A stretch of 64,000 nt of DNA from Rhodothermales bacterium (GTDB taxonomy: Bacteria > Bacteroidota > Rhodothermia > Rhodothermales > Bin80): NCBI GenBank assembly GCA_022821385.1, contig JAJEDR010000056.1, positions 28,038-92,037 of the forward strand, in the 5' to 3' direction. A program made the translations under genes and the position numbers. The notes under the pieces are model-generated. The model was not told the DNA's origin. It saw nothing but the letters and a program-made list of their open reading frames with translations, and did not search any database. This document shows, piece by piece, positions 15,301 to 31,579 of this stretch (position 1 is its first letter; the number at the start of each line of letters is the position of its first letter).

Positions 15301-17908
15301 TGACGGTGATCCGACTTCGGTAGCGTACACATCTGTCAGCGAAATCATACTGACTATTCCGGCAGGCGCAGCATCTGGAAATGCTGATTTCGAAATCACA
15401 CCCGACAACAACAATGTTCACCAGCCAAATGGAGCCGTAACGATCAGCAGTTCCAACACCCTCGTATTGAATACAACTGACCTCACACTCGAGAACGACG
15501 ATGCCGCGCCGACGGGGATCGTCCTGTCAGCCCAGCCCACATCAATCTCGGAGGACGCCGGTCCAACCACGATAACTGTCACTGCTGCTGTACAAGGAGA
15601 GACAACTTACGCCACTGAACAAACCATAACCGTAACAGCGAGCAGTTCTGGACAGGTATATGCGGTCGATTTTGCCGCAGTCCCGGATTTTGTAATCACA
15701 ATCCCGGCCGAATCCACCAGTGCCAGCACCATCATTGAGCTTGTCCCCGAAAATGATCAGGAAGACGAACAGGACGAAACCATCACTTTAAGTAGCACGA
15801 ATTCCCTCGTTATACAGGGAAGCAGTATTACGATTGTGGATGACGATCAGGCACCCACGGGTATAGCCGTATCAGTCAACCCCGATGTAGTTGCTGAAAA
15901 TTCTGGACCCACTGAGGTGACGGTAACTATTACTGTAACTGGAGGCACACGGTACGCAGAAGAAAAAGCGTTAACCTTGAGCGTTGCCGGCTCTGGCCTG
16001 CCCGGAGCAGTAGGCTTTGCACCAATTTCCCCGATCATGCTGTCGCTCCCCCCTGGGGAAGACGTGCTCTCAACAACTTTTTCGCTGGAACCTGTAGACA
16101 ATCTGCTAGATGAGCCCGATGAGATCTTGACGATAGCTGTTGCTGGAGATGATGTTGGGGCCGAGGCGCAGCTTTCCCTTACGGACGATGATCCTGAGCC
16201 GGCTGGATTTGCCTTGACCGTGACTCCCGAAATTGTCGTAGAGGGGGACGGCCCGACTAATGTCAGTGTGACCGCTACTGTTATGGGGATCTCGCGGTAT
16301 TCAGCCATGCAAACTCTTGACATCTCCGTCACTGATGCAATTGCCGGAGCGGTTGGCTATGAGAATATTCCCGACTTTACCATTGAAGTCGCTCCCGGTA
16401 CAGATTCGGGCACTAACACCTTCATACTAACCCCGAAAGAGAATACCGTCAGGGAAACTGATGCAACAATTACGATAACTGCCCTGCATATGGGCAAAAC
16501 TATCAACGTAAGGCTTTTGCTTCGGGATGACGATCAGGCAACTGTGCGGGCGTCTGATGTAAATGCTGCTCTGCTACCTGAGGCAACCAGAGCCATGATT
16601 GCCAGCGCAGTAGGGGCAGTCAGTAATCGTATTGACGGGTTCAGGAATACCCACTCAGCATCTTCGGGGAATTTTTCGAGTACGCTGTCCGGTTTGATGA
16701 TGAGATTCCGTGACGGTACACCCTACACGGGATCTGTAGCCGCGTCTACCTGGACTTCCCGACTTAGTAATACCTCGCTGTCCGCGAGCTTGAATGGACG
16801 CATCACGGTTTGGGGGCATGCAGATTATCGTGCGCTATCCGGCAACAACGCCGACTACCCCCTTGGCTATGACGGAGATGTCAGCGGTTTTCATGCTGGT
16901 GCTGATATGACCCTTGGCCGGTTTCTTGTCGGAATTTCTGCATCACAGTTTGATGGTGATCTGGATTACGAATACAGTGGCAGCACAGGCCAGGTAAACC
17001 TTAGCGCGCCTGTAAAAGGGCTGTATCAGATCGACGCACGTACACTCAGTCCCTATGTGAACTGGTCCTGGAGCGCGAATTCTGGAATATGGACCATGGC
17101 CAGTTTTGGCGCAGGCGACGTAGAACTTTCTGATCCAGACATGGCTCCTGAACGGTCTGAGACTTCTTTGCAGGCCTTCGCTGCGGGGGTTGATTTGCGA
17201 TTGATTACGGCTCAAAGCGGCTTTTCTCTTACGGTAAAGGGAGCCGCGTGGACAGGACAAATGGATCTGGATGAAAATACAAGTCGCATAAGTGGGTTGG
17301 CCGTAAATGTCCGTCGCATCCAGATGTCATTTGAGGGAGCATACCGCATCGGACTTGCATCAAAGGGGATGTTTCAACCCTTCATTGAAGCTGGCATGCG
17401 AGGCGATGGAGGGGACGGACAAACAGGGTTAGGCGTGGAACTGGGAGGAGGTGCACGCCTCGCTTTGCCCTCCGCAGGACTTCGATTTACAGGACAAGGG
17501 CGTGCACTTGTCGCCCATAAAGGCAATATCGACGAATGGGGATTTGGTGGTATGCTGAGTTATTCCCACGGTGATCATACCGGGCCGACGCTGGAATTGG
17601 GATCATATACGGGTCATACGCTTGGTGGTACTCAAAAAATCTGGAACGATGCCGCATGGTTCGCTGAACATACTCGGGGGCGTGCCAAGACAAGGTTGCA
17701 GTCGTTGCTGGGCTATGGATTTGAAGTGAGCACCGGAACTGTCATGCCTTATACCGGAATAGAACTGGAGCGTGGTGTTAATACACGAATGGGAGCAGAG
17801 TATCGCTTTGGAGATCGATTGAGTGTTCGGCTGGAAGCTTCCAACCGCATAGCATCACATACACACAACTTATCCCCCGTCGTACACGGATCAATCACGC
17901 TGCGTTAA
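12365..17908 (+). CDS. Giant surface protein: signal peptide, about 11 Calx-beta repeats, C-terminal autotransporter-like outer-membrane beta-barrel
   Basis: The product is 1847 aa. The N-terminal hydrophobic signal is IGIILLLALWTIPAGW. Repeats of about 115 aa each end in a DDD/NDD motif. The last ~450 aa show alternating-hydrophobic beta-strand patterns. Confidence 0.85.
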   Translation: MPPLMNFMGQTFQWIRPRIGIILLLALWTIPAGWTTHSIPEKTGIVPESGPHLDPVALTIPECWQPNSAIAQPISIVGEATTRSHIKCYVHGQSPISVPIPETTSSDNNPPNGRTNANFGFDFNPSADRKTETRSFIIYTDIDILFENAGATTITVTAEVDGVSPFNTATTLPITVTGSGVASAVDFASVPNFNIVVPGGATSGSATFTLTPENDLVDETDETITVASTSALVNGTDEISLRDDDAPPTGISLDATPNVAQENEGAQIITVTATVDGRTTYSTAQSIPITVTGTLTAGAVDFIPVPDFSIEIPAESSSGSTTFTLTPEDDSVAETDETITIASSNAAVTNTITFLLRDDDGAPRGINILTNTSAVYEDLGAQDVIVTLEVSGSTTYPTDQTVPLTVTGTGATGVVGFDPVANFNIVLPAQALTASSTLTITPVNNLVDEANETITLASSSPEVTGPATINLIDDDPTPSITLNAAPSTISEADGATQVTITAGWNGQVVFPIDHLIPLSITGSGSDAAVDFTSVTNLDLHVAAGASGGTATFTLTPIDDSEEEVDEVITISSTSTLVSAPATITLTDDDATPSIRLSATPGSVREGDGPTAITVTATVDGATTIGASLILPINVSGSDVPEAADFAPVADFNLTIDAGNSTGSAAFILTPENDTENELNELITIASTSALVTNHTTITLIDDDAAQVALSVTPATIHENRGTQTVSVTGTLDGVRAFPTDRVVTLSISASGNPDAVDFEPVADVDLAFQSGSFTATEVFDLTPIDDLEFESDETITVAGSDAIVTGPAFITLLNDDIEPEGIVLEASPSVINEDAGLTKVTVTANVQGLTRYSTDQEIVLAITDDGDPTSVAYTSVNEITLTIPAGAASGYAEFDVTPENNNLYQSDGTVTIGSSNALVLNTTDLTLANDDAAPTGIVLSAQPTSISEDAGPTRVTITANVQGDTRYSTDQRIVLDITDDGDPTSVAYTSVSEIILTIPAGAASGNADFEITPDNNNVHQPNGAVTISSSNTLVLNTTDLTLENDDAAPTGIVLSAQPTSISEDAGPTTITVTAAVQGETTYATEQTITVTASSSGQVYAVDFAAVPDFVITIPAESTSASTIIELVPENDQEDEQDETITLSSTNSLVIQGSSITIVDDDQAPTGIAVSVNPDVVAENSGPTEVTVTITVTGGTRYAEEKALTLSVAGSGLPGAVGFAPISPIMLSLPPGEDVLSTTFSLEPVDNLLDEPDEILTIAVAGDDVGAEAQLSLTDDDPEPAGFALTVTPEIVVEGDGPTNVSVTATVMGISRYSAMQTLDISVTDAIAGAVGYENIPDFTIEVAPGTDSGTNTFILTPKENTVRETDATITITALHMGKTINVRLLLRDDDQATVRASDVNAALLPEATRAMIASAVGAVSNRIDGFRNTHSASSGNFSSTLSGLMMRFRDGTPYTGSVAASTWTSRLSNTSLSASLNGRITVWGHADYRALSGNNADYPLGYDGDVSGFHAGADMTLGRFLVGISASQFDGDLDYEYSGSTGQVNLSAPVKGLYQIDARTLSPYVNWSWSANSGIWTMASFGAGDVELSDPDMAPERSETSLQAFAAGVDLRLITAQSGFSLTVKGAAWTGQMDLDENTSRISGLAVNVRRIQMSFEGAYRIGLASKGMFQPFIEAGMRGDGGDGQTGLGVELGGGARLALPSAGLRFTGQGRALVAHKGNIDEWGFGGMLSYSHGDHTGPTLELGSYTGHTLGGTQKIWNDAAWFAEHTRGRAKTRLQSLLGYGFEVSTGTVMPYTGIELERGVNTRMGAEYRFGDRLSVRLEASNRIASHTHNLSPVVHGSITLR
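12782..16540 (+). repeat. In-frame array of Calx-beta-type coding repeats (~330-345 nt period)
   Basis: The recurrent pattern is ..ITVTATVDG.T.YSTDQ.I.L.VTG.....AVDF..V.DF.I.IPAG..SG...F.LTPE.D...E.DETITI.S........I.L.DDD..P. I counted eleven D/N-DD boundaries. Confidence 0.8.
14816..15568 (+). repeat. Near-identical tandem duplication (2 full 345-nt units plus the head of a third) inside the Calx-beta array
   Basis: The units start at 14816, 15161 and 15506. Units 1 and 2 share exact runs such as ggtgatccgacttcggtagcgtacacatctgt (32 nt) and attccggcaggcgcagcatctgga (24 nt). Units 2 and 3 share acggggatcgtcctgtcagcccagcc (26 nt). Confidence 0.9.
16547..17908 (+). other. Autotransporter-like (type Va) beta-barrel domain of the giant protein
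   Basis: A helical linker (VNAALLPEATRAMIASAVGAVSNRIDGF) is followed by at least 12 amphipathic strands, for example RITVWGHADYRAL, VSGFHAGADMTL, LQAFAAGVDLRLI, GVELGGGARLAL and LSVRLEASNRI. The terminal residues are ..SITLR, not the usual aromatic. Confidence 0.6.
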
Positions 17909-18388: not shown

Positions 18389-19663
18389 ATGGAACCCCAG
18401 CCGCCGAACCTTGTCCAATTACGCTTCACACGGTATCTCATTGTGATGGCTGAATCACATCATCTCAGACCGTCCGCCCCTCTCACCGCTGCTCGTGATC
18501 GAGGGCCCTCCCGGTATTTTCACGGCCGAATACGGAGCCAGCGCAATTTCAAGGAACTGTTGCACCGTGCGACTCAGGCGGGGAATGGAACGACATTCCT
18601 AATTCAGGGACCTCCTGGTGTGGGGAAGACTGCCCTGGTTTATGAATGCAAACGTCACGCTTTAGAAGGTGGCTGGGATGTAGCCTCTGTTAACCCTCCG
18701 ACTCTTTGGGATCCAAACGAAATGCTGTACGCTCTTGGGCGAGGGAGCAGACTGAGACTGACGGGGGGGTCTGGGAAAGTTGGCGTAGATGCAGTTGTGA
18801 AAATCGAGGCGGGATTGGATTTTTCAGTAAACCAGGAAACCCGTACGGTACTGCAAGTGCTTAGGGGTGGGAAGAAGCCCCTACTCCTCGCCTTGGACGA
18901 AGCTCAAGCACTGGGCAAGCCAAATATTCCGCCATCTGATCAGGTGGGCGTTGTGAACAGTGTCCTTAACAACATCCACAATGGGGACTTGGATAGACCT
19001 GTCATTCTTTTGGCAGCGGGTTTAGGGACGACCTTGAAGTCCTTCGGGAGACTTGGAATTTCGAGGTTTGCAGCGCACTGTGTTGTGGAATTAGGGGCAT
19101 TGAGTAAGGAGGATGAGCGTGCGGTGATCCGGGATTGGATCAAAAAGGAGGGTAGAGCCAAAGGAGATCCAACAGGATGGATTGATGCGATCTCGCGGGA
19201 AACGCATGGATGGCCCCAGCATATCCAAACCTATGCGGACATCGCTGCAGAGCAGCTAAAGGCAGATGGCGGAATTATGACTCCAGAGGGGTTGCGCGTT
19301 GTACTGGAAGCGGGACGGGAATATCGTCAGGTGTATTACAAGCAACGAGTAGATGACTTTCGTGTAGATCAGCTCCGCAGTTTGGCAAGAACCATTGCGG
19401 CTGTCCCCCAGGGAGAGCCTACTGAGTATAGAGATATAGTGTCTTCTCTGGCACGGGACTATGGCGATGATGGGGCGGAAACTTTATTCAAGAGCTTGGA
19501 AGAGCAAGGGTTGCTAGCGCGGAGTGGGATGGGGTATGCTGTCCCCATTCCCTCGATGCATGCATGGCTGAGGGACGAGTATGTCCGAGAGAAGATTGAA
19601 TTCCCTCGCGACCCGCAGAAGGGACAAAGCAGTCACGAGCAGAGTTCCGGGTTGGAACATTAA
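18389..19663 (+). CDS. Orphan P-loop NTPase (AAA_16 / ORC-Cdc6-like ATPase with probable C-terminal winged helix)
   Basis: FHGRIRSQRNFKELL precedes the Walker A GPPGVGKT. The Walker B is LLLALDEAQAL. The likely true start is the ATG at 18446 (MAESHH). The gene is flanked on both sides by roughly 450-480 bp without convincing ORFs. Confidence 0.6.
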   Translation: MEPQPPNLVQLRFTRYLIVMAESHHLRPSAPLTAARDRGPSRYFHGRIRSQRNFKELLHRATQAGNGTTFLIQGPPGVGKTALVYECKRHALEGGWDVASVNPPTLWDPNEMLYALGRGSRLRLTGGSGKVGVDAVVKIEAGLDFSVNQETRTVLQVLRGGKKPLLLALDEAQALGKPNIPPSDQVGVVNSVLNNIHNGDLDRPVILLAAGLGTTLKSFGRLGISRFAAHCVVELGALSKEDERAVIRDWIKKEGRAKGDPTGWIDAISRETHGWPQHIQTYADIAAEQLKADGGIMTPEGLRVVLEAGREYRQVYYKQRVDDFRVDQLRSLARTIAAVPQGEPTEYRDIVSSLARDYGDDGAETLFKSLEEQGLLARSGMGYAVPIPSMHAWLRDEYVREKIEFPRDPQKGQSSHEQSSGLEH

Positions 19664-20116: not shown

Positions 20117-20611
20117 CTACATGCCCAGACTCCCTCTCACTGCGTCCATCACATCCTCATCAATCTCTAAATAGCCCTGTTCACGGGCATAACTCTCGAC
20201 ATTCCGCTTGACCATAGGCCGGATATAGTGGGGAATTGCTTCAATGCGAGCCAGTGCCTCTGCCGTCCAGACAGGCTTTTTCGGTTCAGACTCCGCAGCC
20301 CCAATTGCGTCGTTGACCATCCCCGTGAAAGGACATTTACCACCTGTACCTGAGGGAGGTCCCTCTGGCGACTCCTCCTGGACCGATGCAAGATTTGATC
20401 GAAGGGTTTCCATGGGCTCCTCCGGTGTGGTTCGCCCGCCGATCCTTACACCCAGTGAGCGAACCATCTGGGTCTCGGCCCTGTTGGTCAACATCGCTGT
20501 CTGCACTGAACAGGTCGGACACTCATACACGATGGACATTGAGCCGTCAAATGGACCATGCGTAGACTTTAATGCCATTGGCTGGTCACAGGGAACACAC
20601 AAAAATTTCAC
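20117..20611 (-). CDS. Zn-ribbon plus PCP_red-domain protein (last gene of the bd-like operon)
   Basis: The N-terminal CVPC...CPTC ribbon is followed by a linker with a KCPFTG motif. The C-terminal VWTAEALARIEAIPHYIRPMVKRNVESYAREQGYLEIDEDVMDAV (nt 20138-20272) matches the BchB C-terminal PCP_red pattern W..eA...L..iP.f.R...r...E.yAr..G...It. The GTG start overlaps the upstream stop (GTGA at 20608-20611). Confidence 0.7.
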   Translation of the reverse strand: MKFLCVPCDQPMALKSTHGPFDGSMSIVYECPTCSVQTAMLTNRAETQMVRSLGVRIGGRTTPEEPMETLRSNLASVQEESPEGPPSGTGGKCPFTGMVNDAIGAAESEPKKPVWTAEALARIEAIPHYIRPMVKRNVESYAREQGYLEIDEDVMDAVRGSLGM

Positions 20612-21462
20612 TTTGATTGATTTTTAAGCCAGAAATGTACTCGTTGGGCTACATCCAGGATCGCATTGGCGGCCGGATGCCCCGCATGCACCTCAATGTA
20701 AGATCTGCCCGTCTCCAAAAAATCGGCAAGCGTAACATTGAACGGAATAGCGCCCAAATAGGGGACACCATGCCGCTCAGCCAGTTCCTCCACCGCCTCG
20801 GTCCCGATAAACATCTGCTCTTTACATCTACACTCCGAACAAATCATCGTACTCATGTTCTCAACCACACCGGCAATCCGCACATTCGCAACATTCAATG
20901 CCATCAAAATAGAACGGGAAACAACCGTCATCGCCGTCTGTGATGCCGTAGAAACAACAATTGCACCCGTCAGATCCGGTAACAGGTCCGCCAAATTCTG
21001 AAGCCGTTCGGCACCAGGGGGCAAATCTATCAGCAACACATCCAGATCACCCCAATCGGTGTCTGAAAGCAATTCCCGAAGTGCACTCATCTCAACCATT
21101 GAACGCCAAGTATAGGCGCCCTGCTGGGATGATGCTTCCCACACGAGCGGGGTTTCGTCCTCCGGCAAAAACATATCCATGGACATGACCGGCACACCGT
21201 ACGCGTTACGGGCAGCGATCATTGCACCATTTTTCGGTGACGGCTTATGGTCTCTTACTCCCATCATACGCGCCATGCAGGGCCCATTCAAATCTGCATC
21301 CAATACGCCCGTACGCACCCCCAACCTAGTCAGCCCATCCGCCAGACAGGCAGTCACAGTACTTTTTCCAACCCCTCCTTTTCCACTCATCACCGCGAAA
21401 ATACTCCCGATCCGCGCCAGACGCTCCTTTAGCCGATCGTGCTGCTGGGCAACTTGTCCCAA
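20608..21462 (-). CDS. Mrp/NBP35/ApbC-like P-loop ATPase (SIMIBI class; putative Fe-S cluster carrier)
   Basis: The deviant Walker A is SGKGGVGKST and DLPPG is present. A CSEC pair sits where Mrp proteins carry CxxC. Confidence 0.75.
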   Translation of the reverse strand: MGQVAQQHDRLKERLARIGSIFAVMSGKGGVGKSTVTACLADGLTRLGVRTGVLDADLNGPCMARMMGVRDHKPSPKNGAMIAARNAYGVPVMSMDMFLPEDETPLVWEASSQQGAYTWRSMVEMSALRELLSDTDWGDLDVLLIDLPPGAERLQNLADLLPDLTGAIVVSTASQTAMTVVSRSILMALNVANVRIAGVVENMSTMICSECRCKEQMFIGTEAVEELAERHGVPYLGAIPFNVTLADFLETGRSYIEVHAGHPAANAILDVAQRVHFWLKNQSK

Positions 21463-21503
21463 GACATCAGATCCTCCATCGGACGCTATATCGTGGTAGG
21501 TTT

Positions 21504-23438
21504 TCAGTTATCCGAGCCAGCTTGCGCTTGTTCCTGGATCATTTCCTCCATCAGCTTTATCCCTTCCTTTATCCCTTCCTCGGTGATTGCAAGCGTGATC
21601 AGGTTCGTCTTCGAGGCACGTGCAACCGCTTCTACACGTTCCTTGGTGCGTGTACGCATGAAGCCCTCCGGAACCCGGCTCAGCCGCGCACGGGCATTTC
21701 TTGCCCACAAAAACTCTCCATCTTGTAACAAGTCCTCTGCGGCCTTCCTGGTTGGGGCTTCACGTGAGCCATCAGCATACTCACCAACCGTCTTCAAATG
21801 TCCTCCAGGTGTGAGGTTCTGCAGTTCTTCGGCATTACCGGTCAACACCGCACGCACCATACCCAGCGTGATCGTGGGTACGCGCTGTACGCGTGCCCGT
21901 TTTTCAATCTGTGCCTTGGCCCGGCGCATCTGGTAGCCGTCAGGAACAGAACGAAGTTCTTTTAGTGCTTCCTTGGTCCATTGCAGGCGGACATCATCAA
22001 AGGTTTGTTGCTCCTGTGAACCACCCTCCAGTTTGGCCAACTGCGTGATCGCATCCTTGTCCAGCTTCTGGAATGCCTCCGCAGGGCTGCCACAAACGGC
22101 GCATCGCACGGGGTCAAAGTCACGCGCTGAATATCCACACTGACTGCAAATCCATGTTACAGAATCTCTGTTTGCGATTTCCTTGGCCGCGGTATCCTCT
22201 GCAATTATGCCCATCTTGATCATGGACGAGCGCGGCAGGATATTACCCATAGCCTGTTCAACTATCTTTCGGGTGATCACGGAATGTCCACGCTCCATGG
22301 CCCACCGATGAATTGTTGTGCGTGCGATGCCACGAGCGAAGTCGGGAGCAGTATTCAGGAGGCGTGTGGCAGGCTCCGTCCATAACATGGATTCCTCTGC
22401 GCTCACGTCTACAGGTGGCACATACCGCTTACTGGATAGCAAGATATTACATGGCGCTTGGCGGAGAAGATTCTCCGTGTTGCTCCCGATGTCCATATCC
22501 TCATCACTGTGCACCCCGATACGTCCCAGAACCAGCAGCCACGGCTCTTCACGCCTGACGTACTGCAGCATCTTCTCGAATGCCTTGCCGTCAAGCAAAG
22601 TGATCTTTAGATCTACCTCAGCTTCATCCGCAATTCGTCTGGCAATATCCAGATGTGACTGATATATCTTGGCAAGTCCGGTGTCAATAACCTCTTCGTG
22701 CAACTGCTCCTGCTCCTTGAACCTGAAGACCTTTGATGCTTTTTCCGTCAGCACGTTAACAATGCTGTTGAACATTGCATAATGCAGGTAGGGATCATAT
22801 ACCGACACCGCTTCAACCTGGCGCCCCGTTTTCTGACCAAGCTCAAGCGCAGTGCGCAGGCCCGCAAAAGACTCTGGACTGCCGTCAATTCCCACGACAA
22901 TATTGCCCTCGGGCTTTCCGTCAACGCTGATCGTTCCCGGATCAAGATTCTTGATCACCAAAGTGTCTGTGCGTACCCGACGGGTGACACGCTCACATAC
23001 ACTCCCTATGGTACTGTCCTTAACAGCCCCCAAACCCAGCGCACCCATGATAACGAGGTCATAGTCACTCTCGTCAATGTCCTGAGCAATCACCTTCCAG
23101 TTCTTGCCGTCATACATTTTCGGTTCAAACGGCACACCAGCGGCTTTACAACGCTCTTCTGCCACAACCAGGTAAGAATCACTGATGAGCTCGAGTCCCA
23201 TTGTGATCAACGTGTCGTGAATCTTGCGCTGCTTCTCCATCGCTTCCTCAATCAGGTATTCTTCTGGAAGCGTGTATTCCATTTGTTTGAAACGATAATC
23301 ATGCATACGTGCCGCGTACGCATGACTCGCTACAACCGTCGAATCAAATTGTCCAGCAAGGGATACCGCCATATCAATGGCACTGAGCGAATGCTCAGAA
23401 TTGTCAACCGGTACGAAAATCTTCTTGTACATGAGCAT
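21504..23438 (-). CDS. Multidomain protein: tandem universal stress protein (USP) domains, three PCP_red domains and a rubredoxin-like Zn ribbon
   Basis: USP-like units cover aa 3-165 and 178-336 (KKIFVPVDNSEHS and NIVVGIDGSPES). The PCP_red-like units are LWTEPATRLLNTAPDFARGIARTTIHRWAMERGHSVIT, LQWTKEALKELRSVPDGYQMRRAKAQIEKRARVQRVPTIT and FLWARNARARLSRVPEGFMRTRTKERVEAVARASKTNLIT (nt 21564-22385). The ribbon is WICSQCG..RCAVCG. Confidence 0.7.
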   Translation of the reverse strand: MLMYKKIFVPVDNSEHSLSAIDMAVSLAGQFDSTVVASHAYAARMHDYRFKQMEYTLPEEYLIEEAMEKQRKIHDTLITMGLELISDSYLVVAEERCKAAGVPFEPKMYDGKNWKVIAQDIDESDYDLVIMGALGLGAVKDSTIGSVCERVTRRVRTDTLVIKNLDPGTISVDGKPEGNIVVGIDGSPESFAGLRTALELGQKTGRQVEAVSVYDPYLHYAMFNSIVNVLTEKASKVFRFKEQEQLHEEVIDTGLAKIYQSHLDIARRIADEAEVDLKITLLDGKAFEKMLQYVRREEPWLLVLGRIGVHSDEDMDIGSNTENLLRQAPCNILLSSKRYVPPVDVSAEESMLWTEPATRLLNTAPDFARGIARTTIHRWAMERGHSVITRKIVEQAMGNILPRSSMIKMGIIAEDTAAKEIANRDSVTWICSQCGYSARDFDPVRCAVCGSPAEAFQKLDKDAITQLAKLEGGSQEQQTFDDVRLQWTKEALKELRSVPDGYQMRRAKAQIEKRARVQRVPTITLGMVRAVLTGNAEELQNLTPGGHLKTVGEYADGSREAPTRKAAEDLLQDGEFLWARNARARLSRVPEGFMRTRTKERVEAVARASKTNLITLAITEEGIKEGIKLMEEMIQEQAQAGSDN

Positions 23439-23456
23439 TAACGCGTAAACCGCGCA

Positions 23457-23786
23457 TCAATAGACATAAGGAATTCGATCACGCACATAACGAAGTCTAT
23501 CAATCACATAATCCATTTCCGGGCGGTCACTGATAGCGGCCACGTTCAATAACGCGGCGTCAAGAAAAGCTCCACACGAACCTCTCTCTTCTTCATCTGC
23601 CTTCTCTACACAGGCAATGAACCGCCTGAGTTCAAACCGTGTTTTGACCAATTGGTTACGTGTATCCGAGGAAGGATCCGCAACTGCAATGTGTCGGGAA
23701 AGTCGCCTGACCTCCAATCCGAGGATTGGAGGAACCATCTGACGAAACTGCTGCCAGGGTAAATATTGAATCTCGTTTTCAACCAT
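23457..23786 (-). CDS. Hypothetical 109-aa protein inside the operon
   Basis: The ATG at 23786 lies 2 nt after the ferredoxin stop (23779-23781). The listed ORF start at 23801 is a TTG. I saw no recognisable motif. Confidence 0.5.
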   Translation of the reverse strand: MVENEIQYLPWQQFRQMVPPILGLEVRRLSRHIAVADPSSDTRNQLVKTRFELRRFIACVEKADEEERGSCGAFLDAALLNVAAISDRPEMDYVIDRLRYVRDRIPYVY

Positions 23787-23997
23787 TGGCCGTCCGCGCA
23801 ACGGTTGAGACAGGCTCTTCTCTCATTTCGGGAATCGGCTGAATAGCATCAACCTCACAAAAGGCCAAGCACTCCATAAAATCTGTACACTCGGGCTCAA
23901 TCACGTAGATCGGATCGTCAACCCTTATAGCCTCAATTGGGCACATGTCTACACAATCACCACATGCCGTACACTCCTGCGTAATGTAGAATGGCAT
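23779..23997 (-). CDS. Small 4Fe-4S ferredoxin
   Basis: A CTACGDCVDMCP cluster motif is present, plus a second, degenerate CTDFMECLAFCEVDAI motif. Confidence 0.75.
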   Translation of the reverse strand: MPFYITQECTACGDCVDMCPIEAIRVDDPIYVIEPECTDFMECLAFCEVDAIQPIPEMREEPVSTVARTANG

Positions 23998-24000
23998 ATT

Positions 24001-25245
24001 CTAAACGAGGTGTATTGGTTTTCTGGAAAAGGCGGGCGCTGTACCAAATGCCTTGGACCGCTGCATACCACTGAGTGCGCCATTCATAACCTCAGTGGTG
24101 ATACTTGAAACGCCTTTGTTGCGAGCGTACGCTTCGACGCCTTTCCGCGTCTTGTTACGAATGAACGAAATAGGAATCCGCCCAAGACGCTCCTGGGCGG
24201 CCTGATCCCAATGCAGTACCGCCTCCGGCAAAGCTGCGCCCGTGGGCTGATAGGCGCAGCCGGGGTCTTCTGCCAAATAATCCCCCGTGGCAGCGAAGGC
24301 CCGACACCGACAACCGCCGCATAGATCTTTGAACTCACATGCACCACAGCGCCCCTTCAGGTTTGCCGTTTCCCTAAGTTCTGCAAAAACGGCGGAACTG
24401 TCCCAGATTGTCGTGAAAGACTCCTCCAGCACACTTCCAGCCACAACATCCATATAGGGACAGGGCGTAACATTTCCCTCCGGTGTAATTCTGCAGTATT
24501 CTGTTGCTGCCATGCATCCACCGCTTTCGAGCCCCCCGCGCCCCATAGCGTAGGCAATCTGCTTGAATTGGGGTGCACACTTGCTGCGTACCAACATGGG
24601 GCGATAGTCCTCCTGCAGATCGACCAGTCGCGTCAGCATGGCTTCCGTCGCCGCAGCCGAGAGATCAGTCATCCCTTGTCCCCGTCCGGTCTGCACCAGA
24701 AAATACAGATTGAACGACCATGCCCCATGATCCCGCGCAAAATCCAGAAGTGCGGAAATCTCGTCGTAGTTCTCTTCCATGACCGTTGTTTGCACGAGCA
24801 CTTCCAGCCCCTCTTCCCGACAGATTTCCAATGCGCGTACTGAGTGCTGCCAGGCATTACGTCCACCCCTGAATGCGTTGTGACGATCAGGATCAGCGGA
24901 ATCTATACTGATCCCGACTCCTTTGACGCCACACTCAACCATCTTGCGGGCAACAGCACGCGTCACAAGCACGCCGTTGGTACCCATCACGACCCACATG
25001 CCCATTCCGCTCGCGGTCTCCGCAAGATGGTAGATATCTTTCCGCAGGAGTGGTTCTCCCCCCGTCAATATCAGCATTTCAGTGCCGAGAGTCCGCATTT
25101 CACCAAGCAATGCTAGGCACTCATCGGTGGTCAGCTCCCGATCAGCGGCGCGTCCGGCAGACAAGTAGCAATGTGGGCACTGTAAATTGCATTTCTTGGT
25201 CAGATTCCACGATACGAGCGACGGTATGTACGTCCTCCTGTCCAC
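24001..25245 (-). CDS. Radical SAM/SPASM enzyme (NirJ/AhbC/AhbD/PqqE-like) with a C-terminal PCP_red domain
   Basis: The CNLQCPHC motif (nt 25168-25191) is CX3CX2C, and TGGEPLL is present. The SPASM-type Cys cluster is GRCGACEFKDLCGGCRCRAF. The C-terminal LHWDQAAQERLGRIPISFIRNKTRKGVEAYARNKGVSSITTEVMNGAL lies at nt 24073-24216. Confidence 0.8.
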   Translation of the reverse strand: MDRRTYIPSLVSWNLTKKCNLQCPHCYLSAGRAADRELTTDECLALLGEMRTLGTEMLILTGGEPLLRKDIYHLAETASGMGMWVVMGTNGVLVTRAVARKMVECGVKGVGISIDSADPDRHNAFRGGRNAWQHSVRALEICREEGLEVLVQTTVMEENYDEISALLDFARDHGAWSFNLYFLVQTGRGQGMTDLSAAATEAMLTRLVDLQEDYRPMLVRSKCAPQFKQIAYAMGRGGLESGGCMAATEYCRITPEGNVTPCPYMDVVAGSVLEESFTTIWDSSAVFAELRETANLKGRCGACEFKDLCGGCRCRAFAATGDYLAEDPGCAYQPTGAALPEAVLHWDQAAQERLGRIPISFIRNKTRKGVEAYARNKGVSSITTEVMNGALSGMQRSKAFGTAPAFSRKPIHLV

Positions 25246-25248
25246 TGC

Positions 25249-26784
25249 TTAAGCGGTTTTCCTGCGACGCGCCCGTAAATTCACCAGGGCCACAATCAAC
25301 AGCTCTGCCCCCAACACAATCAGGAACCACTTTGCCATGGGGAGCACCGCAGATTGCGTCTCCATTGGTTGCAGATACAGATGGTACCACGCCGAAATCC
25401 CACGCTTGTTGCCTCGCTCCCCGTTAAACCCGTCCCATACAGTAAAAGAAATCGGGACAAACGTCGCTTCCGACATCGTCAACTCTCCCCGGCTACGAGG
25501 ACCCTTGAACTGGACGGTCCAAACCCCATCTTCGTAGCTAGCAGATCTTTCCAGGGCGATCCCGTTATCAGCGATCCGCCCCGACCCCTGCCCCGTTAAC
25601 ACCGCAGCTGAATCCGTAGCAAGATCCGTGTACCAGATACTCATCGGAAACCTGCTGTCTCCAAACATGAAGTACGGGCGTTCCAGTCCCTCTGGCGTAC
25701 GGGACGGCAGGAGTGCTGCCACTGCATCCGACCACCCATCCATTAGCGTATCCGGCTGTGCCGGATCAAACATTGGCACCTCAATCCCCGGGTTATTCAT
25801 GCCTTCGGTTTCTGCGGTCATATCGTGCCACTGCAGCTGGATTGCGATCTCTGATTCGTTGTAAACCGCCTTAACACTTATGCCATTGACGCCGGGATAG
25901 AAAGCACGCCCAGGCTCAATTATCTGGCCTACGATCGGAAAATACGTTTCAGGTGCTGCTTCAAAAAGACTATCGCCCAACACGAGTTCACCCGACCGCC
26001 CCTGCACCGTAACCGTCGTACCATAGTCCGGGGTATCTCTCGACAGCGACCATACATAATCCACTAAAGCCCACCGATCCTCCTCGTCAATCGTTTGCTC
26101 ATACGAAGGCATCGGCGTCCCATTCAGACCAGTCATGAAGGTCCGATATATATCCTCACGTGTAGCACTGGCTCTGAATGTCCAGCGCTTGGTCATGTCT
26201 GCCGCTCGAATAGGGTATCCCCAGTCATCCACGAGTTCTGGGGCGCTCTCGCCATTTCCGCGGCCGTTCTCGCCATGACAGTCGGCACATTGATTGGCTT
26301 CAAATACCTCTCGCCCACGTGCCAAGTGGTCCGGGTCTGCTGAATATGAGGGCGCACGCGGGATCTCTACCACCGTAGGATTGCCGTACGGCCCATCAAA
26401 AGCAGACTCAAATGTCTTGAGGTAATAGGCTAGGTTGGTGATTTCCGTCTCTGACAGGATCCCTTCCCAGGCAGGCATACTCGTATACGGCATCCCGAGG
26501 CGAATACTCCGCTTGATATCTTCTGTGGTGGGAAGTTCGCCGCTCGCTGTGGAACGGAACTTATAGTTGCCCGAAGTAAAATCTCTCGGCGTGGGGCGCA
26601 GGTAGGGCGTCGCCACGGCACTAGCATCTCCCTCATAGCCATGGCAGTGCGCACACTTGATATCGTAGACTTCCTTGCCCTCAGCGCGTTGCGCCTCAGT
26701 GCCAAGATCGTTCTCCTGTTGTGCAACCGCAGGGTTAGCGATGTACACCAGCAATAAAGTCAGCAAAATTCGCATCCTCGTCAT
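25249..26784 (-). CDS. Dihaem c-type cytochrome fused to an EB_dh-like (ethylbenzene dehydrogenase gamma / type II DMSO-reductase haem-b subunit-like) domain, C-terminally membrane anchored
   Basis: A signal peptide is present. The haem motifs are CAHCH (nt 26641-26655) and CADCH. A ~230-aa beta-rich domain contains WHDMTAE...FTVWDGFNGERGNKRGISAWY. The C-terminal TM helix is WFLIVLGAELLIVALVNL. Confidence 0.7.
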   Translation of the reverse strand: MTRMRILLTLLLVYIANPAVAQQENDLGTEAQRAEGKEVYDIKCAHCHGYEGDASAVATPYLRPTPRDFTSGNYKFRSTASGELPTTEDIKRSIRLGMPYTSMPAWEGILSETEITNLAYYLKTFESAFDGPYGNPTVVEIPRAPSYSADPDHLARGREVFEANQCADCHGENGRGNGESAPELVDDWGYPIRAADMTKRWTFRASATREDIYRTFMTGLNGTPMPSYEQTIDEEDRWALVDYVWSLSRDTPDYGTTVTVQGRSGELVLGDSLFEAAPETYFPIVGQIIEPGRAFYPGVNGISVKAVYNESEIAIQLQWHDMTAETEGMNNPGIEVPMFDPAQPDTLMDGWSDAVAALLPSRTPEGLERPYFMFGDSRFPMSIWYTDLATDSAAVLTGQGSGRIADNGIALERSASYEDGVWTVQFKGPRSRGELTMSEATFVPISFTVWDGFNGERGNKRGISAWYHLYLQPMETQSAVLPMAKWFLIVLGAELLIVALVNLRARRRKTA

Positions 26785-26787
26785 CGG

Positions 26788-27621
26788 TTAATGCGGCATG
26801 CCCTGCGCCCGTGGTTCGAATCCGGTGAACTCATATAGAAATATGATCACATCCCAAATCTCTTCTTCCGTAAGAAAATCTTCCCATGCCGGCATTGCGC
26901 TTGACCATGGCGTTGATTCCGACGGTAGTCCCGGAGCTCCTTTTGCAATTCGCCAGAACAGATAGGACTCCTGGAGCATTGCGATAGTCGTTGCATCATT
27001 GAAGTTTGCCGGAAGCGGGTCATACCCATGCGCAAACATCCCGGCCCCCTCCATATTATCCCCGTGACAGTAGAAACAGTTCTCAAAGTAAATCCGCCGT
27101 CCATTAGCAACATGCTCTGCAAAGGCTGCTTCATCCGTATGCTGGAGCTCACGGATGGGGTTATTGGCGGTTGTCAGATTAATCGAGGTGCCCTGAAAGG
27201 TTATTGAGGACGGGGGTGGCGGGTGTATCGTGCGACCACTGGAAGGTGGCTGCGGCGCCTCGTTCATACTGGCAAAGATCCAGGCAGCCACTGCTCCTGG
27301 AATCACTAACATAACAATCAGCAATGCAACCCTATACTGACGGGTCACCATGAAGCGTACGATAGATTCCTTGGCCTGCTTCAGCTCTTCATTATCCGCC
27401 GACAGATACGCAACCAGCGCAATCGTGATGATCGCCATGAACAGCACGATAATTGAATTCGGCAGCGGCGGATTAATGCCGTACGAGAAAGCGGCCCACA
27501 GCGCAGCCCACCATATCCCCATCCAGGCTAGACGATTAAGCTTGACCCAGCGTGTCACCACGAACTGGATCAGAACCATCGCTGCTGCTATCGCAAGAAG
27601 CATAAAAAGATTCATGGACAA
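26788..27621 (-). CDS. Membrane-bound monohaem cytochrome c (4 N-terminal TM helices)
   Basis: The hydrophobic N-terminal half is followed by a CFYCH haem motif and a class I cytochrome c-like tail (MPAWEDFLTEEEIWDVIIFL). Confidence 0.75.
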   Translation of the reverse strand: MSMNLFMLLAIAAAMVLIQFVVTRWVKLNRLAWMGIWWAALWAAFSYGINPPLPNSIIVLFMAIITIALVAYLSADNEELKQAKESIVRFMVTRQYRVALLIVMLVIPGAVAAWIFASMNEAPQPPSSGRTIHPPPPSSITFQGTSINLTTANNPIRELQHTDEAAFAEHVANGRRIYFENCFYCHGDNMEGAGMFAHGYDPLPANFNDATTIAMLQESYLFWRIAKGAPGLPSESTPWSSAMPAWEDFLTEEEIWDVIIFLYEFTGFEPRAQGMPH

Positions 27622-27641
27622 ACAATATCAATTCAGTAAGC

Positions 27642-28433
27642 CTAAAGCGAAGCTAGATAATCTACCAGGGCCTGCAGTTCCGAAGCAGATACCTGTTCAT
27701 GAAAACCGGTGGCATCAAGCATGGCGGTCATTACCCCGGCAACAAAGCCCTCAGTTACTGTTGCATCTGGGTCCACAATAGCTTCGTAGATTTCCGCCTT
27801 GGACATGCGTCCACCCAAGCCTTGAAGCGTTGGTCCAGCAGCCGCTGTACCATCAAGGGTATGACAGGTATTACACAGGTACGCCGCGAACAGTGTTTCT
27901 GCATCCCGATTCCCCCCTACCGCCGCCGGAGCAACGTCCTGTGATGCAGGCGCTTGGCCCTGCCATTCAAGTTGCGTATCCATCGTAACCGTCGGTGTTC
28001 CGCCAAGAGATTGCAGGTAGGCAATCACGGTGAGTATCTCCTGATCTGTAAGTGCAATCGGCGGACGGGCAACGTTGGGCATTCCGGCCACATAACCTTC
28101 CAGAACGTACGCGTTCGGATCATACATGGACTCTGCCAGATAGTAAACATCACTTTGCCCCGCAACACGTTCTCCAGCTATAGCACCAATACCGGCCAGA
28201 TCCGGGAAACGCAACCCGGTTCCATGGTCGCCCATTGTGTGGCACGTCAGGCAGGTCCCTTTGCCGGCCACAATTTCCTCACCAATGGGAATCATCTCCT
28301 CTGTAGTAAGATTGGCGCCAATCTCTATATCCTCAGGCGGCTCTGTTCGCTTCTGTGGTACCCACAAACTGACGTACCAATAGAAAACGCTGACCACAAT
28401 GGTGAATCCAAATATTTTCAGGGCCTGTTTCAC
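27642..28433 (-). CDS. Membrane-anchored dihaem cytochrome c
   Basis: An N-terminal TM anchor is followed by the CLTCH and CNTCH motifs, each with a distal Met region. Confidence 0.8.
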   Translation of the reverse strand: MKQALKIFGFTIVVSVFYWYVSLWVPQKRTEPPEDIEIGANLTTEEMIPIGEEIVAGKGTCLTCHTMGDHGTGLRFPDLAGIGAIAGERVAGQSDVYYLAESMYDPNAYVLEGYVAGMPNVARPPIALTDQEILTVIAYLQSLGGTPTVTMDTQLEWQGQAPASQDVAPAAVGGNRDAETLFAAYLCNTCHTLDGTAAAGPTLQGLGGRMSKAEIYEAIVDPDATVTEGFVAGVMTAMLDATGFHEQVSASELQALVDYLASL

Positions 28434-28460
28434 TGGACTGCCTACCGGTCTGTTGGTTTA

Positions 28461-30236
28461 TTAAGAATCTATAGGTGCGGATGCTTCCGCTTTACTCCAT
28501 CGAGAACCCGATTTGGGTTCCCAATCCTTTCGACCGGAAAGTCCGGCCAGGAAGAAAACAATCGCGATCAACAGGAAGAAAACAATAACAATCGCGCTCA
28601 CAACACCCCCAGCATAACCCAGTGTGGGGGTAAACGCATCTACGGAGGTGTCGCGTACTACACCATACACATGCCAATGCTGACGCATACCAGCACGAAC
28701 ATAGCCCATGAGGCCCATCAGCCAGGTAAACGTGATCGCCAGGAAGAAAAGGGCATACTGCGATCGAGCCGAAATTTTTCCCCACACGATTTCCCCGCGG
28801 GACTTTGCATTCTTGAACAGGAAAATATCAATGACCGTCACAGATATCATCGCAAACAATACAGACATCACCTGTGGCTGACTCAGTCCAATACGCGTTT
28901 GGGCATCCACAAAGTACCCGTAAACACCCAGAAATACGACGTAGATCACCACTGCAGCAAATATGCCGAATTGAACCCAGTTCCCGGTCTTGGCCCACGA
29001 AACGGTCGCCTCCTTGTTCGCACGCCGATAGAGCAGGAAGCTGACATAGGTTGTGAGTATGAGCAGGTTAACCGCGGTATTCTTCGCGCTCATCACACCC
29101 AGAACATTCAGTATAGGATGATGTGAACCTCCCATTGCGCGGGCCTCTTCCACCGTCGCAACAAGCGAATGCGGGGTTGCCCACACGATAAAACAAAGCG
29201 TAATGATGCCCAGAAGGTATTTGATAAACCCTCGGAAGCGTTCTGCCCCCGGTATCCGGGCCATGCTTAGCCACAGATAGTAGTTGGCCGCCAGGAACAG
29301 GTTACCAATCAGTACCGCCTGCACGATAAACAACCACGAGAACGTACCTCCCATCAACGTGATTCCAAGGCTCTGGTCGTACGCGTAAATCTCAACCCCC
29401 AACCAGTAACCCGCAAACGGGAGGGGCAGCAATGCACAAATGGCCACAAAAATACCTATGTACCCCATCCAGTCGTAATGAGCCCGGGCCTCCAGTGTTT
29501 TCGCGCCCAAAAATTTGAAGGCGCCGTAAGCTGCCCCGATAGCTCCCCCAAAAGCCACATTGGCAATAATCCGGTGGATGTTGATGGGCATCCAGATGTA
29601 ATTGTTGATTGCCTCCCAGATATTGGTCAGGTTGCCCATCTCGTCAATTCCATTGGGCGTGTTCATGAACGTCAACCAGGCATTGGCAATGAACATGATC
29701 GCCGTGCCCACGATGTTGAGCATCACCCCTAGGAACAAGTGCAGGCGGGGGGAGAGTTTCCCCCAGCCGTAGTAATACGCGTAGAGGAAAAACGCTTCAA
29801 GAAAGAACAGCAGGACATACGGTAAAAAGGTCCAACTGAATATCTTGACCAGATATTGGGTAAGCGCTGGATAAAAGACGATCAGCCCGAAGGTAAGCAG
29901 CGCACCCAGGGTTGCCGTGAATGAGAACGACACCGAAAGCAACTTCGTGAAATCGTAGGCCAGTTGGTCATAGCGCCGGTCCCCCGTCTTGTAGCCGATG
30001 AACTCAATGACGAGCGCAAAAATGGGAACTGCTAACACAAACGCTGCAAACATCAAATGCAACTCGGCGACCGCCCACATAAGCACACGGCTGCTTATGA
30101 AAGGCAGCGCCCTGTACTCGGGATCGGCCTCCTGGGGGGCAGCCCAGGCTGACTCAGAACACAGAGCCACTAACACCAATACGAGGATTCCCAGAGGAAT
30201 CCTCAGCATCCACGATCTTCGATCAATTGTCAGCAT
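28461..30236 (-). CDS. Cytochrome bd subunit I (CydA)-family membrane protein, non-canonical (no CydB partner, no long Q-loop)
   Basis: Four motifs resemble canonical CydA motifs: AVAELHLMFAAF (His19 region), FFLEAFFLYAYYYGW (FFLES..FFFGW), NAWLTFMNTPNG (N.WMQ.P.G) and HRIIANVAFGGAIGAAYGAF (His186 region). GMRQHWHVYGV resembles GRQPW.VYG. I count about 13 TM segments plus a signal-like N-terminus. Confidence 0.75.
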   Translation of the reverse strand: MLTIDRRSWMLRIPLGILVLVLVALCSESAWAAPQEADPEYRALPFISSRVLMWAVAELHLMFAAFVLAVPIFALVIEFIGYKTGDRRYDQLAYDFTKLLSVSFSFTATLGALLTFGLIVFYPALTQYLVKIFSWTFLPYVLLFFLEAFFLYAYYYGWGKLSPRLHLFLGVMLNIVGTAIMFIANAWLTFMNTPNGIDEMGNLTNIWEAINNYIWMPINIHRIIANVAFGGAIGAAYGAFKFLGAKTLEARAHYDWMGYIGIFVAICALLPLPFAGYWLGVEIYAYDQSLGITLMGGTFSWLFIVQAVLIGNLFLAANYYLWLSMARIPGAERFRGFIKYLLGIITLCFIVWATPHSLVATVEEARAMGGSHHPILNVLGVMSAKNTAVNLLILTTYVSFLLYRRANKEATVSWAKTGNWVQFGIFAAVVIYVVFLGVYGYFVDAQTRIGLSQPQVMSVLFAMISVTVIDIFLFKNAKSRGEIVWGKISARSQYALFFLAITFTWLMGLMGYVRAGMRQHWHVYGVVRDTSVDAFTPTLGYAGGVVSAIVIVFFLLIAIVFFLAGLSGRKDWEPKSGSRWSKAEASAPIDS

Positions 30237-30406: not shown

Positions 30407-31579
30407 ATGCTCCAAAAATTTGACGCGTGGCTTGACGAATATCGTGAAATTGCCTTTGACCTGATCCGTATCTATCTGGGCATCGGCCTGTTTGCACGAG
30501 GGATTCTTTTTTTGTTTGACGCATCAACGCTCGTGGCGCTTCTACCAGAAGGCGCACCGGCGTGGCTTTCCGAAAGCTGGGTGCATCTCTTCGTAGCCGG
30601 GTTTCACATGGTAGGCGGACTGCTGATCACAGCCGGATTCTGGACACGCATCGCCGCCCTCTCCCAGATTCCCATTCTTTTTGGAGCAGTGTTTTTGAGT
30701 CTGGGAAGTTTGTTTTCGGCAAACCAGTCGCTGGAACTGTCCTCGCTAGTGCTCTTCATGTTGCTCCTGGTCGTGATCTGTGGATCGGGGAACTGGAGCC
30801 TTGATCGACTGATCGGGAATTCCCCGAACGATTTACGGCAACTGCTGGCCAAACTGTATCGCTTCCGTGCACACGCCTTTGATCTTCTGCGTATGTACCT
30901 GGGGCTCGGCCTGCTTATCCGGGGCATGCTATTCATTGCGGATGCAAACAGCTTCATGGACCTCATCGGCGCGAATTCATCGGCTATGCTACGGTCTAGC
31001 GTTCTGCTGCACTATGTTGCACTGTCGCACTTGCTGGGCGGTTTCATGCTGCTGACCGGACTGCTTTCACGCGTTGGTGCACTGATCCAGATTCCCGTCC
31101 TCGTGGGGGCAGTGTTTGTTGAAGAGATGGCCGGGGGGCTGACCGCGGGTACACAGGGCTTTGAGATCGCCATGCTGACCCTGTTCCTGCTGATCCTGAT
31201 CTTCCTCTACGGATCGGGCCAGATCTCCAGCGATCACTATTTCTTCAAGCGAACCAGCGGACCTACGCCAACGCGCACCACCGTGACCGGGCAGGCGGCG
31301 GAGATCCTTAGTCAGGATGTACCAAAGGATCGTGAATTCGCAAACCCAGTCGACATTCTTGCAGTCCCGGAGGCATTGACCTCCGAAGAATCCATCAAGG
31401 AAATCATCTCAAACCCCTATATCGTGTCCCAGGCTCGATACAGTTTCTGGGGCTGGGCCTTGTTCCTGATGGATGTGACCCCGCAGCCAAAAGAGATTGT
31501 GTTCCGAGATGTCCACAGTGGACAGATTCTGCGTCGCAGCAAGGACCCCAGCGTCATCCAACAATTCAGATACCGATAA
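30407..31579 (+). CDS. Tandem DoxX-family membrane protein with a C-terminal soluble extension
   Basis: Two similar ~135-aa units are present (FDLIRIYLGIGLFARG...HMVGGLLITAGFWTRIAALSQIPILFGAVF and FDLLRMYLGLGLLIRG...HLLGGFMLLTGLLSRVGALIQIPVLVGAVF). Confidence 0.75.
   Translation: MLQKFDAWLDEYREIAFDLIRIYLGIGLFARGILFLFDASTLVALLPEGAPAWLSESWVHLFVAGFHMVGGLLITAGFWTRIAALSQIPILFGAVFLSLGSLFSANQSLELSSLVLFMLLLVVICGSGNWSLDRLIGNSPNDLRQLLAKLYRFRAHAFDLLRMYLGLGLLIRGMLFIADANSFMDLIGANSSAMLRSSVLLHYVALSHLLGGFMLLTGLLSRVGALIQIPVLVGAVFVEEMAGGLTAGTQGFEIAMLTLFLLILIFLYGSGQISSDHYFFKRTSGPTPTRTTVTGQAAEILSQDVPKDREFANPVDILAVPEALTSEESIKEIISNPYIVSQARYSFWGWALFLMDVTPQPKEIVFRDVHSGQILRRSKDPSVIQQFRYR

Follow-up and report, generated by a model that had tools for sequence, protein, structure and literature searches.

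An OR-N2-type bd-like gene set in a Rhodothermales genome, linked to a radical SAM/PCP_red/Mrp module that also accompanies haem-copper oxidases

The cytochrome bd superfamily has been divided into the qOR, OR-C and OR-N groups (Murali, Gennis & Hemp 2021, preprint). According to Table S6 of that work, members of the OR-N2 class have 14 helices, keep H19, E107, H126, H186 and W441, and carry the changes E99 to Y, M393 to M/N and E445 to S/A; their operons hold multiple cytochromes c and an EbdC homologue (Murali et al. 2021). The Nitrospina genome paper (Lücker et al. 2013) had drawn attention to the “conspicuous” and “enigmatic” 14-helix bd-like protein of NXR clusters, which is without a Q-loop, and in later work the NIDE0901-like OR-N2 subunit is part of a likely terminal oxidase of the Nitrospirales (TO_1 of Nitrospirota), without biochemical proof. 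The class is known from bioinformatics (2013, 2021), without biochemical characterisation. Here, a 64,000-nucleotide stretch of contig JAJEDR010000056.1 (hereafter the window), which belongs to a metagenome-assembled genome (MAG) of a Rhodothermales bacterium, is analysed. Ten open reading frames (ORFs) on the minus strand at 20117-30236, named G1-G10 in transcription order, join a gene set that fits the OR-N2 class (G1-G4) to a radical S-adenosylmethionine (SAM)/PCP_red/Mrp module (G5-G10), and the core of this module adjoins both bd-like and A-type haem-copper oxidase genes in other genomes. The ten genes are as follows (USP, universal stress protein; TM, transmembrane).

28461-30236, minus strand: G1, CydA-like membrane protein, 591 aa
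27642-28433, minus strand: G2, dihaem cytochrome c with an N-terminal anchor, 263 aa
26788-27621, minus strand: G3, four-TM monohaem cytochrome c, 277 aa
25249-26784, minus strand: G4, fusion of a dihaem cytochrome c and EB_dh, 511 aa
24001-25245, minus strand: G5, radical SAM/SPASM enzyme with a C-terminal PCP_red domain, 414 aa
23779-23997, minus strand: G6, small [4Fe-4S] ferredoxin, 72 aa
23457-23786, minus strand: G7, predicted four-helix bundle with an ATG start, 109 aa
21504-23438, minus strand: G8, two USP domains, PCP_red, a rubredoxin-like Zn ribbon and two further PCP_red domains, 644 aa
20608-21462, minus strand: G9, Mrp/ApbC/NBP35-type P-loop ATPase, 284 aa
20117-20611, minus strand: G10, four-Cys ribbon and PCP_red, 164 aa

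An initial annotation, made from the sequence alone, had placed all ten genes correctly, and Pfam searches bear out every domain that it named. The genes are separated by gaps of 27, 20, 3, 3, 3, 18 and 41 nt, and G9 and G10 overlap by 4 nt (GTGA); of the junctions given in the initial annotation only G6/G7 has to be revised, since an 8-nt overlap at 23779-23786 (ATGGTTGA) is found in place of a 2-nt gap. The ATG of G7 thus precedes the end of G6, and a longer ORF that begins with TTG at 23801 is open as well. The GC content of the operon is 0.51-0.56, similar to that of its flanks, which agrees with the host-like base composition noted earlier, and the five c-haems counted earlier correspond to five CxxCH motifs, two in G2, one in G3 and two in G4. 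Neither TM segments nor CxxCH haem-c motifs are present in G5-G10. No CydB-like gene is present among the window ORFs scanned (most ORFs of at least 150 aa), as had been proposed, and the ORF scans reveal no haem-synthesis gene in the window. Promoter and terminator scans across the operon give counts equal to those of shuffled controls and carry no information on co-transcription.

G1 matches the Pfam family PF01654 (Cyt_bd_oxida_I) with an E-value of 9e-26, over profile positions 2-240 only, and the CydA chains 9r2g_A (1.4e-14) and 5doq_A (1.4e-11) among PDB sequences. The AlphaFold model of G1, built from a 14-sequence alignment (pLDDT 53.7), served for helix counting and a coarse fold match only, and the top 10 Foldseek matches of this low-confidence model are all CydA chains. 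An N-terminal signal-like helix is predicted to be followed by approximately 13-14 TM helices, and predicted helices fill the position of the Q-loop, in line with the missing Q-loop described in the initial annotation. The residue H60 is aligned to H21 of 5doq_A (H19 in E. coli); H221 is the equivalent of H186, the haem b558 ligand, in the 9r2g_A alignment, whereas the 5doq_A alignment is shifted by one residue here; M382/N386 lie at the M393 position; E147 is the equivalent of the E107 glutamate; and H166 and W521 correspond to H126 and W441 of the signature. The haem-ligand residues on which the CydA-like assignment had been made to depend are thus present. Among 14 aligned homologues (70-91% identical), H60, Y140, E147, H166, H221, M382, N386 and W521 are invariant and A515 is nearly invariant. 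The spacing of the signature residues is the same as in the OR-N2 reference TKS59798.1 of Table S6, with the mapping made through this spacing and the HMMER alignment to CydA chains rather than through a joint alignment with TKS59798.1. A protein encoded on chromosome OZ244794.1 (locus L001; Lnnn denotes the numbered loci fetched from other genomes) is 98% identical to G1.

Because the helix count (approximately 14), the signature residues and an operon with cytochromes c and an EbdC-like subunit all match, G1-G4 are assigned by sequence to the OR-N2 (NIDE0901-like) class of bd-like oxidases. The initial annotation had regarded the respiratory genes as an undescribed system that could not be mapped to any known complex; this part of it has to be given up, as the class was already catalogued in 2013 and 2021. 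The locus shares with the described OR-N2 systems a 14-helix CydA homologue without a Q-loop or CydB, the cytochromes c and the EbdC-like haem-b subunit. It differs from them in having a single CydA-like gene with no OR-N1 partner, in the absence of NXR and bc-type genes from the window, and in the radical SAM/USP/PCP_red/Mrp genes, which the published descriptions consulted do not mention. In two other loci (L046, 6774-8747; L053, 6911-8977) a second, divergently transcribed CydA-like paralogue is present that is 45-50% identical to G1, and the accessory module is absent; this may represent the OR-N1/OR-N2 pairing described for Nitrospirota. A comparison with canonical CydAB(X) reveals homologous N-terminal helices, H19/H186-equivalent histidines and an E107-equivalent glutamate, and CydA chains are the closest solved structures to G1 by both sequence and fold. 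However, the G1 system has neither CydB nor a Q-loop or quinol site, the E99 and E445 glutamates that are further marks of the canonical quinol-oxidising (qOR) enzymes are replaced by Tyr and Ala, G1 has five extra helices, and cytochrome c provides the electron input.

The three cytochrome c subunits follow G1 almost everywhere in a census of G1 relatives, which was based on one genome per GTDB species. A G1 homologue is present in at least 592 GTDB species (at least 592 loci, of which 80 were fetched), and the counts for the genes of the operon refer to the 55 loci in which at least 9 kb of sequence were available downstream of G1. G2, with CxxCH motifs at C61 and C187, one N-terminal TM segment and two stretches matching Pfam Cytochrom_C, is found in 54 of the 55 loci; G3, with CxxCH at C182, four TM segments (listed at approximately 5-23, 49-75 and 98-116) and a match to Pfam Cytochrome_CBB3, is found in all 55; and G4, a Sec-exported protein with two CxxCH motifs and a C-terminal TM anchor at 483-501, is found in 54. 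The EB_dh domain (PF09459) of G4 scores 42.7 bits against a cut-off of 33.3, is EbdC-like and putatively binds haem b. The same domain occurs in the gamma subunit of type II dimethyl sulphoxide (DMSO) reductases. However, G4 reaches only 57.6 bits against the NCBIfam gamma-subunit model TIGR03477 (cut-off 169.85), and no molybdopterin or Fe-S subunit that would correspond to the alpha and beta partners is encoded in the window. Proteins of the same kind as G4, with dihaem c and EB_dh, are found upstream of COX2 in oxidase-linked loci. Additionally, a CarboxypepD_reg-like protein of approximately 250 aa lies by COX2/COX1 or after the G4 homologue in three loci (L164, 2197-2976; L165, 15095-15820; L083, 17708-18484).

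Upstream of G1, genes resembling ActA and ActB of the alternative complex III (ACIII) type are present in 27 of 51 loci. In L033 (5472-9794) and 22 other loci, from Acidobacteriota and relatives, a QrcA/ActA-like multihaem cytochrome, an ActB-like protein and a monohaem cytochrome c immediately precede the CydA-like gene, and the ActB-like protein of L033 is QrcB+QrcC-like and has 1041 aa. This order resembles that of ACIII-caa3-type operons, in which act genes precede O2 reductases. It differs in that there are no act genes in the window and that, in the examined Acidobacteriota locus, the interval from the ActB-like gene to G1 holds no NrfD-like gene; the region further upstream was not looked at there. 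In a marine Gemmatimonadaceae locus (L165, 2061-9863), the genes directly upstream of the bd-like ones encode a type II DMSO-reductase set, made up of a molybdopterin subunit of 1183 aa, an Fe-S subunit, a chaperone resembling NarJ and a gamma subunit of the c2/EB_dh kind. The USP/PCP_red protein of the same locus has 1039 aa and an extra N-terminal PCP_red domain.

The second half of the operon accompanies the first in a large part of the census. G8 (USP/PCP_red) is present in 49 of the 55 loci, G9 (Mrp) in 37, G10 (Zn/PCP_red) in 36 and G5 (radical SAM) in 32; in five further loci Mrp and Zn/PCP_red are present with the radical SAM gene unscored, and in at least three of these the fetched flank ends within the gene. 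The carriers are Rhodothermales, Calditrichia, other Bacteroidota, many Acidobacteriota, Myxococcota, Fibrobacteria and Gemmatimonadaceae (L165). In Acidobacteriota the order is G1-G4, G8, a GNAT acetyltransferase, G9, G10 and G5, rather than G5 first, and since other phyla have the arrangement too, some of them with the genes reordered, it is far beyond chance. The persistence of the linkage through gene-order rearrangement across phyla is strong evidence that the two halves are functionally tied, and the view of the operon as a conserved unit, put forward in the initial annotation, is upheld by this census. In Rhodocaloribacter litoris (L083, CP076718.1) the whole arrangement is contained in a single 4.5-Mb record, with COX1/COX3/COX4 3 kb further on, and an IS605 OrfB/TnpB-family gene (8615-9775) lies exactly between the G4 and G5 homologues. 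Extra, lineage-specific genes also occur inside the module. They encode the GNAT acetyltransferase (28 of the 55 loci), in Chloroflexi an alpha/beta hydrolase, and several proteins of 160-264 aa without annotation (L033, 16977-17849; L081, 7216-8112; L009, 16422-17024; L021, 16332-17126; L164, 9522-10004 and 11245-11961).

A reverse census that starts from the radical SAM enzyme (80 metagenome loci) reveals that the module adjoins bd-like genes, haem-copper oxidase genes or both. It stands behind A-type COX2-COX1-COX3(-COX4) genes, with no bd-like gene, in L081, L087, L111 and L164, and beside both kinds of oxidase in L083, L101, L106, L154 and L160. The gene content of two loci of the former type is as follows.

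L081 (Chloroflexi MAG), oxidase part: COX2, COX1, COX3, COX4, DUF420, redoxin; no CydA-like gene
L081 (Chloroflexi MAG), module part: USP/PCP_red, hydrolase, Mrp, PCP_red, radical SAM, ferredoxin
L164, oxidase part: c2/EB_dh protein, CarboxypepD_reg-like protein, COX2, COX1, COX3, COX4
L164, module part: USP/PCP_red, Mrp, PCP_red, 160-aa protein, radical SAM, 238-aa protein, ferredoxin

In a neighbour-joining tree the haem-copper-linked copies are nested among the bd-linked copies, and the portable core set consists of G5, G6, G8, G9 and G10. As the module follows haem-copper oxidase operons that have no bd-like gene, it is not private to the bd-like enzyme and is a portable companion of terminal oxidases of both the bd-like and the A-type haem-copper kind. 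A role in cofactor supply or maturation, as suggested in the initial annotation, is still the best reading of the block, but the block is not the bd-like enzyme's own. No description of the module, including its link to both kinds of oxidase, was found in the searchable literature, and its proteins carry generic database names only.

G5 has the Pfam domains Radical_SAM, SPASM and PCP_red, with the radical SAM domain starting at residue 14, and members of its family with the same three domains are approximately 70% identical across phyla. The best NCBIfam matches are NirJ2 (344.7 bits) and AhbD (300.1 bits), over residues 10-334, followed by PqqE (159 bits) and, at lower scores, peptide maturases. 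The cluster motif C19-x3-C23-x2-C26 (CNLQCPHC) and the conserved C-terminal SPASM cysteines are shared with the AhbD/NirJ2/NirJ enzymes, from which G5 differs by its scores under the cut-offs, by the extra C-terminal PCP_red domain and by its neighbours, which are oxidase genes rather than ahbABC or nir. AhbD is an O2-independent coprohaem decarboxylase that is in use also outside the full alternative haem pathway. G6 matches the NCBIfam model FdxA_fam (43.5 bits) and many other ferredoxin models, and a ferredoxin gene of this type comes straight after the radical SAM gene in L081 and is separated from it by one extra gene in L164. G9 matches Pfam ParA/NUBPL (PF10609) with 222.8 bits and is, by its sequence, a putative Fe-S cluster carrier: the NUBPL/ParA fold, the deviant Walker A motif (GKGGVGKS) and a C-terminal CxxC (CSEC) are shared with the Mrp/ApbC/NBP35 carriers, including MrpORP. 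It differs from these in falling below the equivalog cut-offs (MrpORP, 198.6 bits; ApbC, 161.9 bits) and in being tied, by gene context, to an oxidase-linked module.

The PCP_red domain (approximately 45 residues) occurs in five copies, one in G5, three in G8 and one in G10. G8, the most tightly linked accessory gene, combines two Usp domains (137 bits), three PCP_red domains and RUBY_RBDX, with CSQC...CAVC motifs; both USP domains have the ATP-type motif G-2x-G-9x-G-S, read as GALGLGAVKDSTIGS and GRIGVHSDEDMDIGS, and at least 5906 homologues are named only “universal stress protein”. G10 has a PCP_red domain (55.8 bits) and the motifs CVPC and CPTC, and its residues 113-163 are aligned to the C-terminal domain of ChlB (2xdq_B, residues 460-510; E-value 6e-7). 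In dark-operative protochlorophyllide reductase (DPOR), the subunits BchB/ChlB have this domain at the C-terminus, whereas the module has no nitrogenase-like BchN/BchB catalytic domains and no BchL. A DPOR function of the module is excluded, as the NCBIfam BchB matches span only profile positions of approximately 456-535. Two ideas on the role of PCP_red were considered: a docking domain for the NifH/Mrp-like ATPase and a tetrapyrrole cap. For G7, no Pfam, NCBIfam or PADLOC match is found. Its AlphaFold2 single-sequence model (pLDDT 86.9) has four helices and no significant structural match in the PDB, and its homologues form only 58 clusters among 1.84 billion representatives. G7 is present in 16 of the 55 loci, only in operons of the Rhodothermales/Calditrichia type, and is absent from the haem-copper-oxidase-linked loci. 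An anti-phage defence system was also considered and rejected, since PADLOC yields only a generic viperin radical SAM similarity (77 bits) and a weak P-loop match.

The explanation that is favoured here, with a probability of roughly one half, is that G1-G4 form an OR-N2 oxidase and that G5-G10 are a module for the O2-independent synthesis or modification of haem and its hand-over during oxidase assembly. In this explanation the CydA-like haem protein would be fed from the periplasm through five c-haems and the EbdC-like haem-b domain, and O2 would most probably be the acceptor reduced by the G1-G4 complex, because the active-site ligand is kept, ACIII-type genes are present upstream and the module is interchangeable with haem-copper oxidases. 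G5-G10 would serve oxidase biogenesis when O2 is scarce. Because the NirJ2 and AhbD scores are well above those of PqqE and the peptide maturases, a haem-type substrate is suggested for G5, which could alter the side chains of an iron tetrapyrrole without O2, either from coprohaem to haem b or as a further modification. G6 may supply the electrons and G9 may load Fe-S clusters; the PCP_red proteins G8 and G10 may hold the product and pass it on or, alternatively, dock partners, and the ATP-binding USP domains of G8 may gate the process by the energy state. The analysis establishes the identity of the genes, their class and the conserved linkage to two oxidase kinds. What we infer from this evidence is that O2 is the acceptor and haem the substrate, together with every hand-over step.

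Several observations weigh against this explanation. The positions of the canonical CydA residues E99 and E445 are occupied by Y140 and A515 in G1, and the strictly anaerobic Kuenenia has a 14-helix bd-like protein, whose subfamily was not checked, in its NXR cluster. For both AhbD and NirJ2, the score of G5 stays under the equivalog cut-off of 500 bits, and the “tetrapyrrole holder” role of PCP_red is a guess; in DPOR, the helix that covers protochlorophyllide lies upstream of the PCP_red domain. As G8 stands alone in 10 of the 55 loci and no module gene is found within 10 kb in five, the oxidase is not strictly dependent on the module in cis. Additionally, a mostly marine clade of radical SAM enzymes, 42-45% identical, occurs alone among housekeeping genes (including sucCD), which would fit a general role in haem synthesis rather than an oxidase-specific one. 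The broader proposal that G5, G6, G8, G9 and G10 constitute an unrecognised, widespread biogenesis pathway, in which the radical SAM enzyme produces or alters the haem of the oxidase without O2 and the PCP_red proteins hand it over to bd-like and haem-copper oxidases alike, is put forward only tentatively; the enzyme would do anaerobically what an O2-dependent step does elsewhere, for example the decarboxylation of coprohaem or a side-chain change of the haem a or d type.

An unlikely alternative is that G1-G4 are not an O2 reductase and instead form a hub that links periplasmic cytochromes c or molybdoenzymes to quinones, in an ACIII-like manner or for reverse electron transport, with the module serving this hub. 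The Nitrospina genome paper proposes an ACIII-like role for the bd-like protein and records its place in the Kuenenia NXR cluster. A hub would also fit the type II DMSO-reductase genes that directly precede G1 in marine Gemmatimonadaceae, and the Acidobacteriota order in which ActA/ActB-like genes and a cytochrome c lead to G1 with no NrfD-like gene between. However, the quinol-binding Q-loop is missing from G1, the H19-equivalent ligand and the proton-channel glutamate are invariant, and the module is exchanged with bona fide haem-copper O2 reductases, which points to equivalent roles of the two enzymes. About equally improbable is a mainly regulatory or stress-related function of G5-G10, in which G8 would sense energy state or hypoxia and tune the oxidase while the remaining genes are housekeeping ones (an AhbD-type haem b synthase and an Fe-S carrier). 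The position of G8 as the most conserved partner, its solitary occurrence in 10 loci, the ATP motif kept in both of its USP domains, the lone radical SAM clade beside sucCD and other housekeeping genes, and the stand-alone use of AhbD for O2-independent coprohaem decarboxylation would all be compatible with this, but the rare PCP_red domain common to G5, G8 and G10 suggests one machine, and the five-gene set moves between oxidase types as a block.

It is also conceivable, at a considerably lower probability, that G5 modifies a protein or peptide, either an oxidase subunit, in which it would introduce a cross-link or another post-translational change, or a ribosomally synthesised and post-translationally modified peptide with G7 or a small ORF as the precursor. 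SPASM enzymes are commonly peptide maturases, G5 has weaker matches to PqqE, mycofactocin and sactipeptide maturases and PDB matches to PqqE and SkfB, and G7 is a small orphan protein near G5. On the other hand, the tetrapyrrole enzymes score about double (345 and 300 bits versus at most 159), the start of the radical SAM domain at residue 14 means that there is no N-terminal peptide-recognition domain, and G7 is absent from the haem-copper-linked loci and from most others. Chance adjacency of the two halves, or their being unrelated transcription units, is hardly credible: the 41-nt gap before G9, the uninformative promoter and terminator scans and the IS605-family transposase gene between the halves in R. 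litoris could be cited for it, but the census, with linkage in groups from Rhodothermales to Gemmatimonadaceae despite reordering, contradicts it.

The remainder of the window holds further features. A 390-aa membrane protein with two DoxX matches (30407-31579, plus strand) is transcribed divergently from the operon and has a homologue only in L001-L005 and L030; it was dropped as a member of the system, probably correctly, as it is conserved only in these six closely related loci. Just past the 3' end of the operon (G10), a 424-aa AAA_16 ATPase is encoded on the opposite strand (18389-19663, plus strand), and an Eco57I/N6_Mtase-type methylase-like protein is found at 1148-2755 (plus strand); both are unrelated to the finding. 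The ORF at 12365-17908 (plus strand; 1847 aa) contains many repeats of approximately 100 residues rich in “TVTATV...DDD” and a barrel-like (outer-membrane) C-terminal region, and has no Pfam match at E <= 1e-5. From 38000 to 46700 the GC content is raised to 0.57-0.59, compared with about 0.51-0.53 elsewhere, and the genes, all on the minus strand, encode a DUF3419/methyltransferase-like protein, a 940-aa protein with PPDK_N and PEP-utilising mobile domains, a UbiA prenyltransferase, HMG-CoA reductase and an AMP-binding enzyme, which is possibly an isoprenoid/lipid cluster. No Rfam RNA elements or tRNAs are found anywhere in the window.

With the respiratory half already catalogued, the accessory module and its association with two kinds of oxidase are the newer result. 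Important nitrifiers are thought to have an OR-N2-type bd-like oxidase as their main or only terminal oxidase. A module common to bd-like and haem-copper oxidases offers a concrete handle on their assembly, and makes it possible to test how an uncharacterised class of oxidases is built and which cofactors it contains. If haem maturation by G5 is indeed independent of O2, it would explain how microaerobes assemble high-affinity oxidases before O2 arrives. It would also provide a function for thousands of genes whose only label at present is “universal stress protein” or “radical SAM protein”, assign to PCP_red a function outside chlorophyll synthesis and point to a possible new haem species in OR-N2 enzymes.

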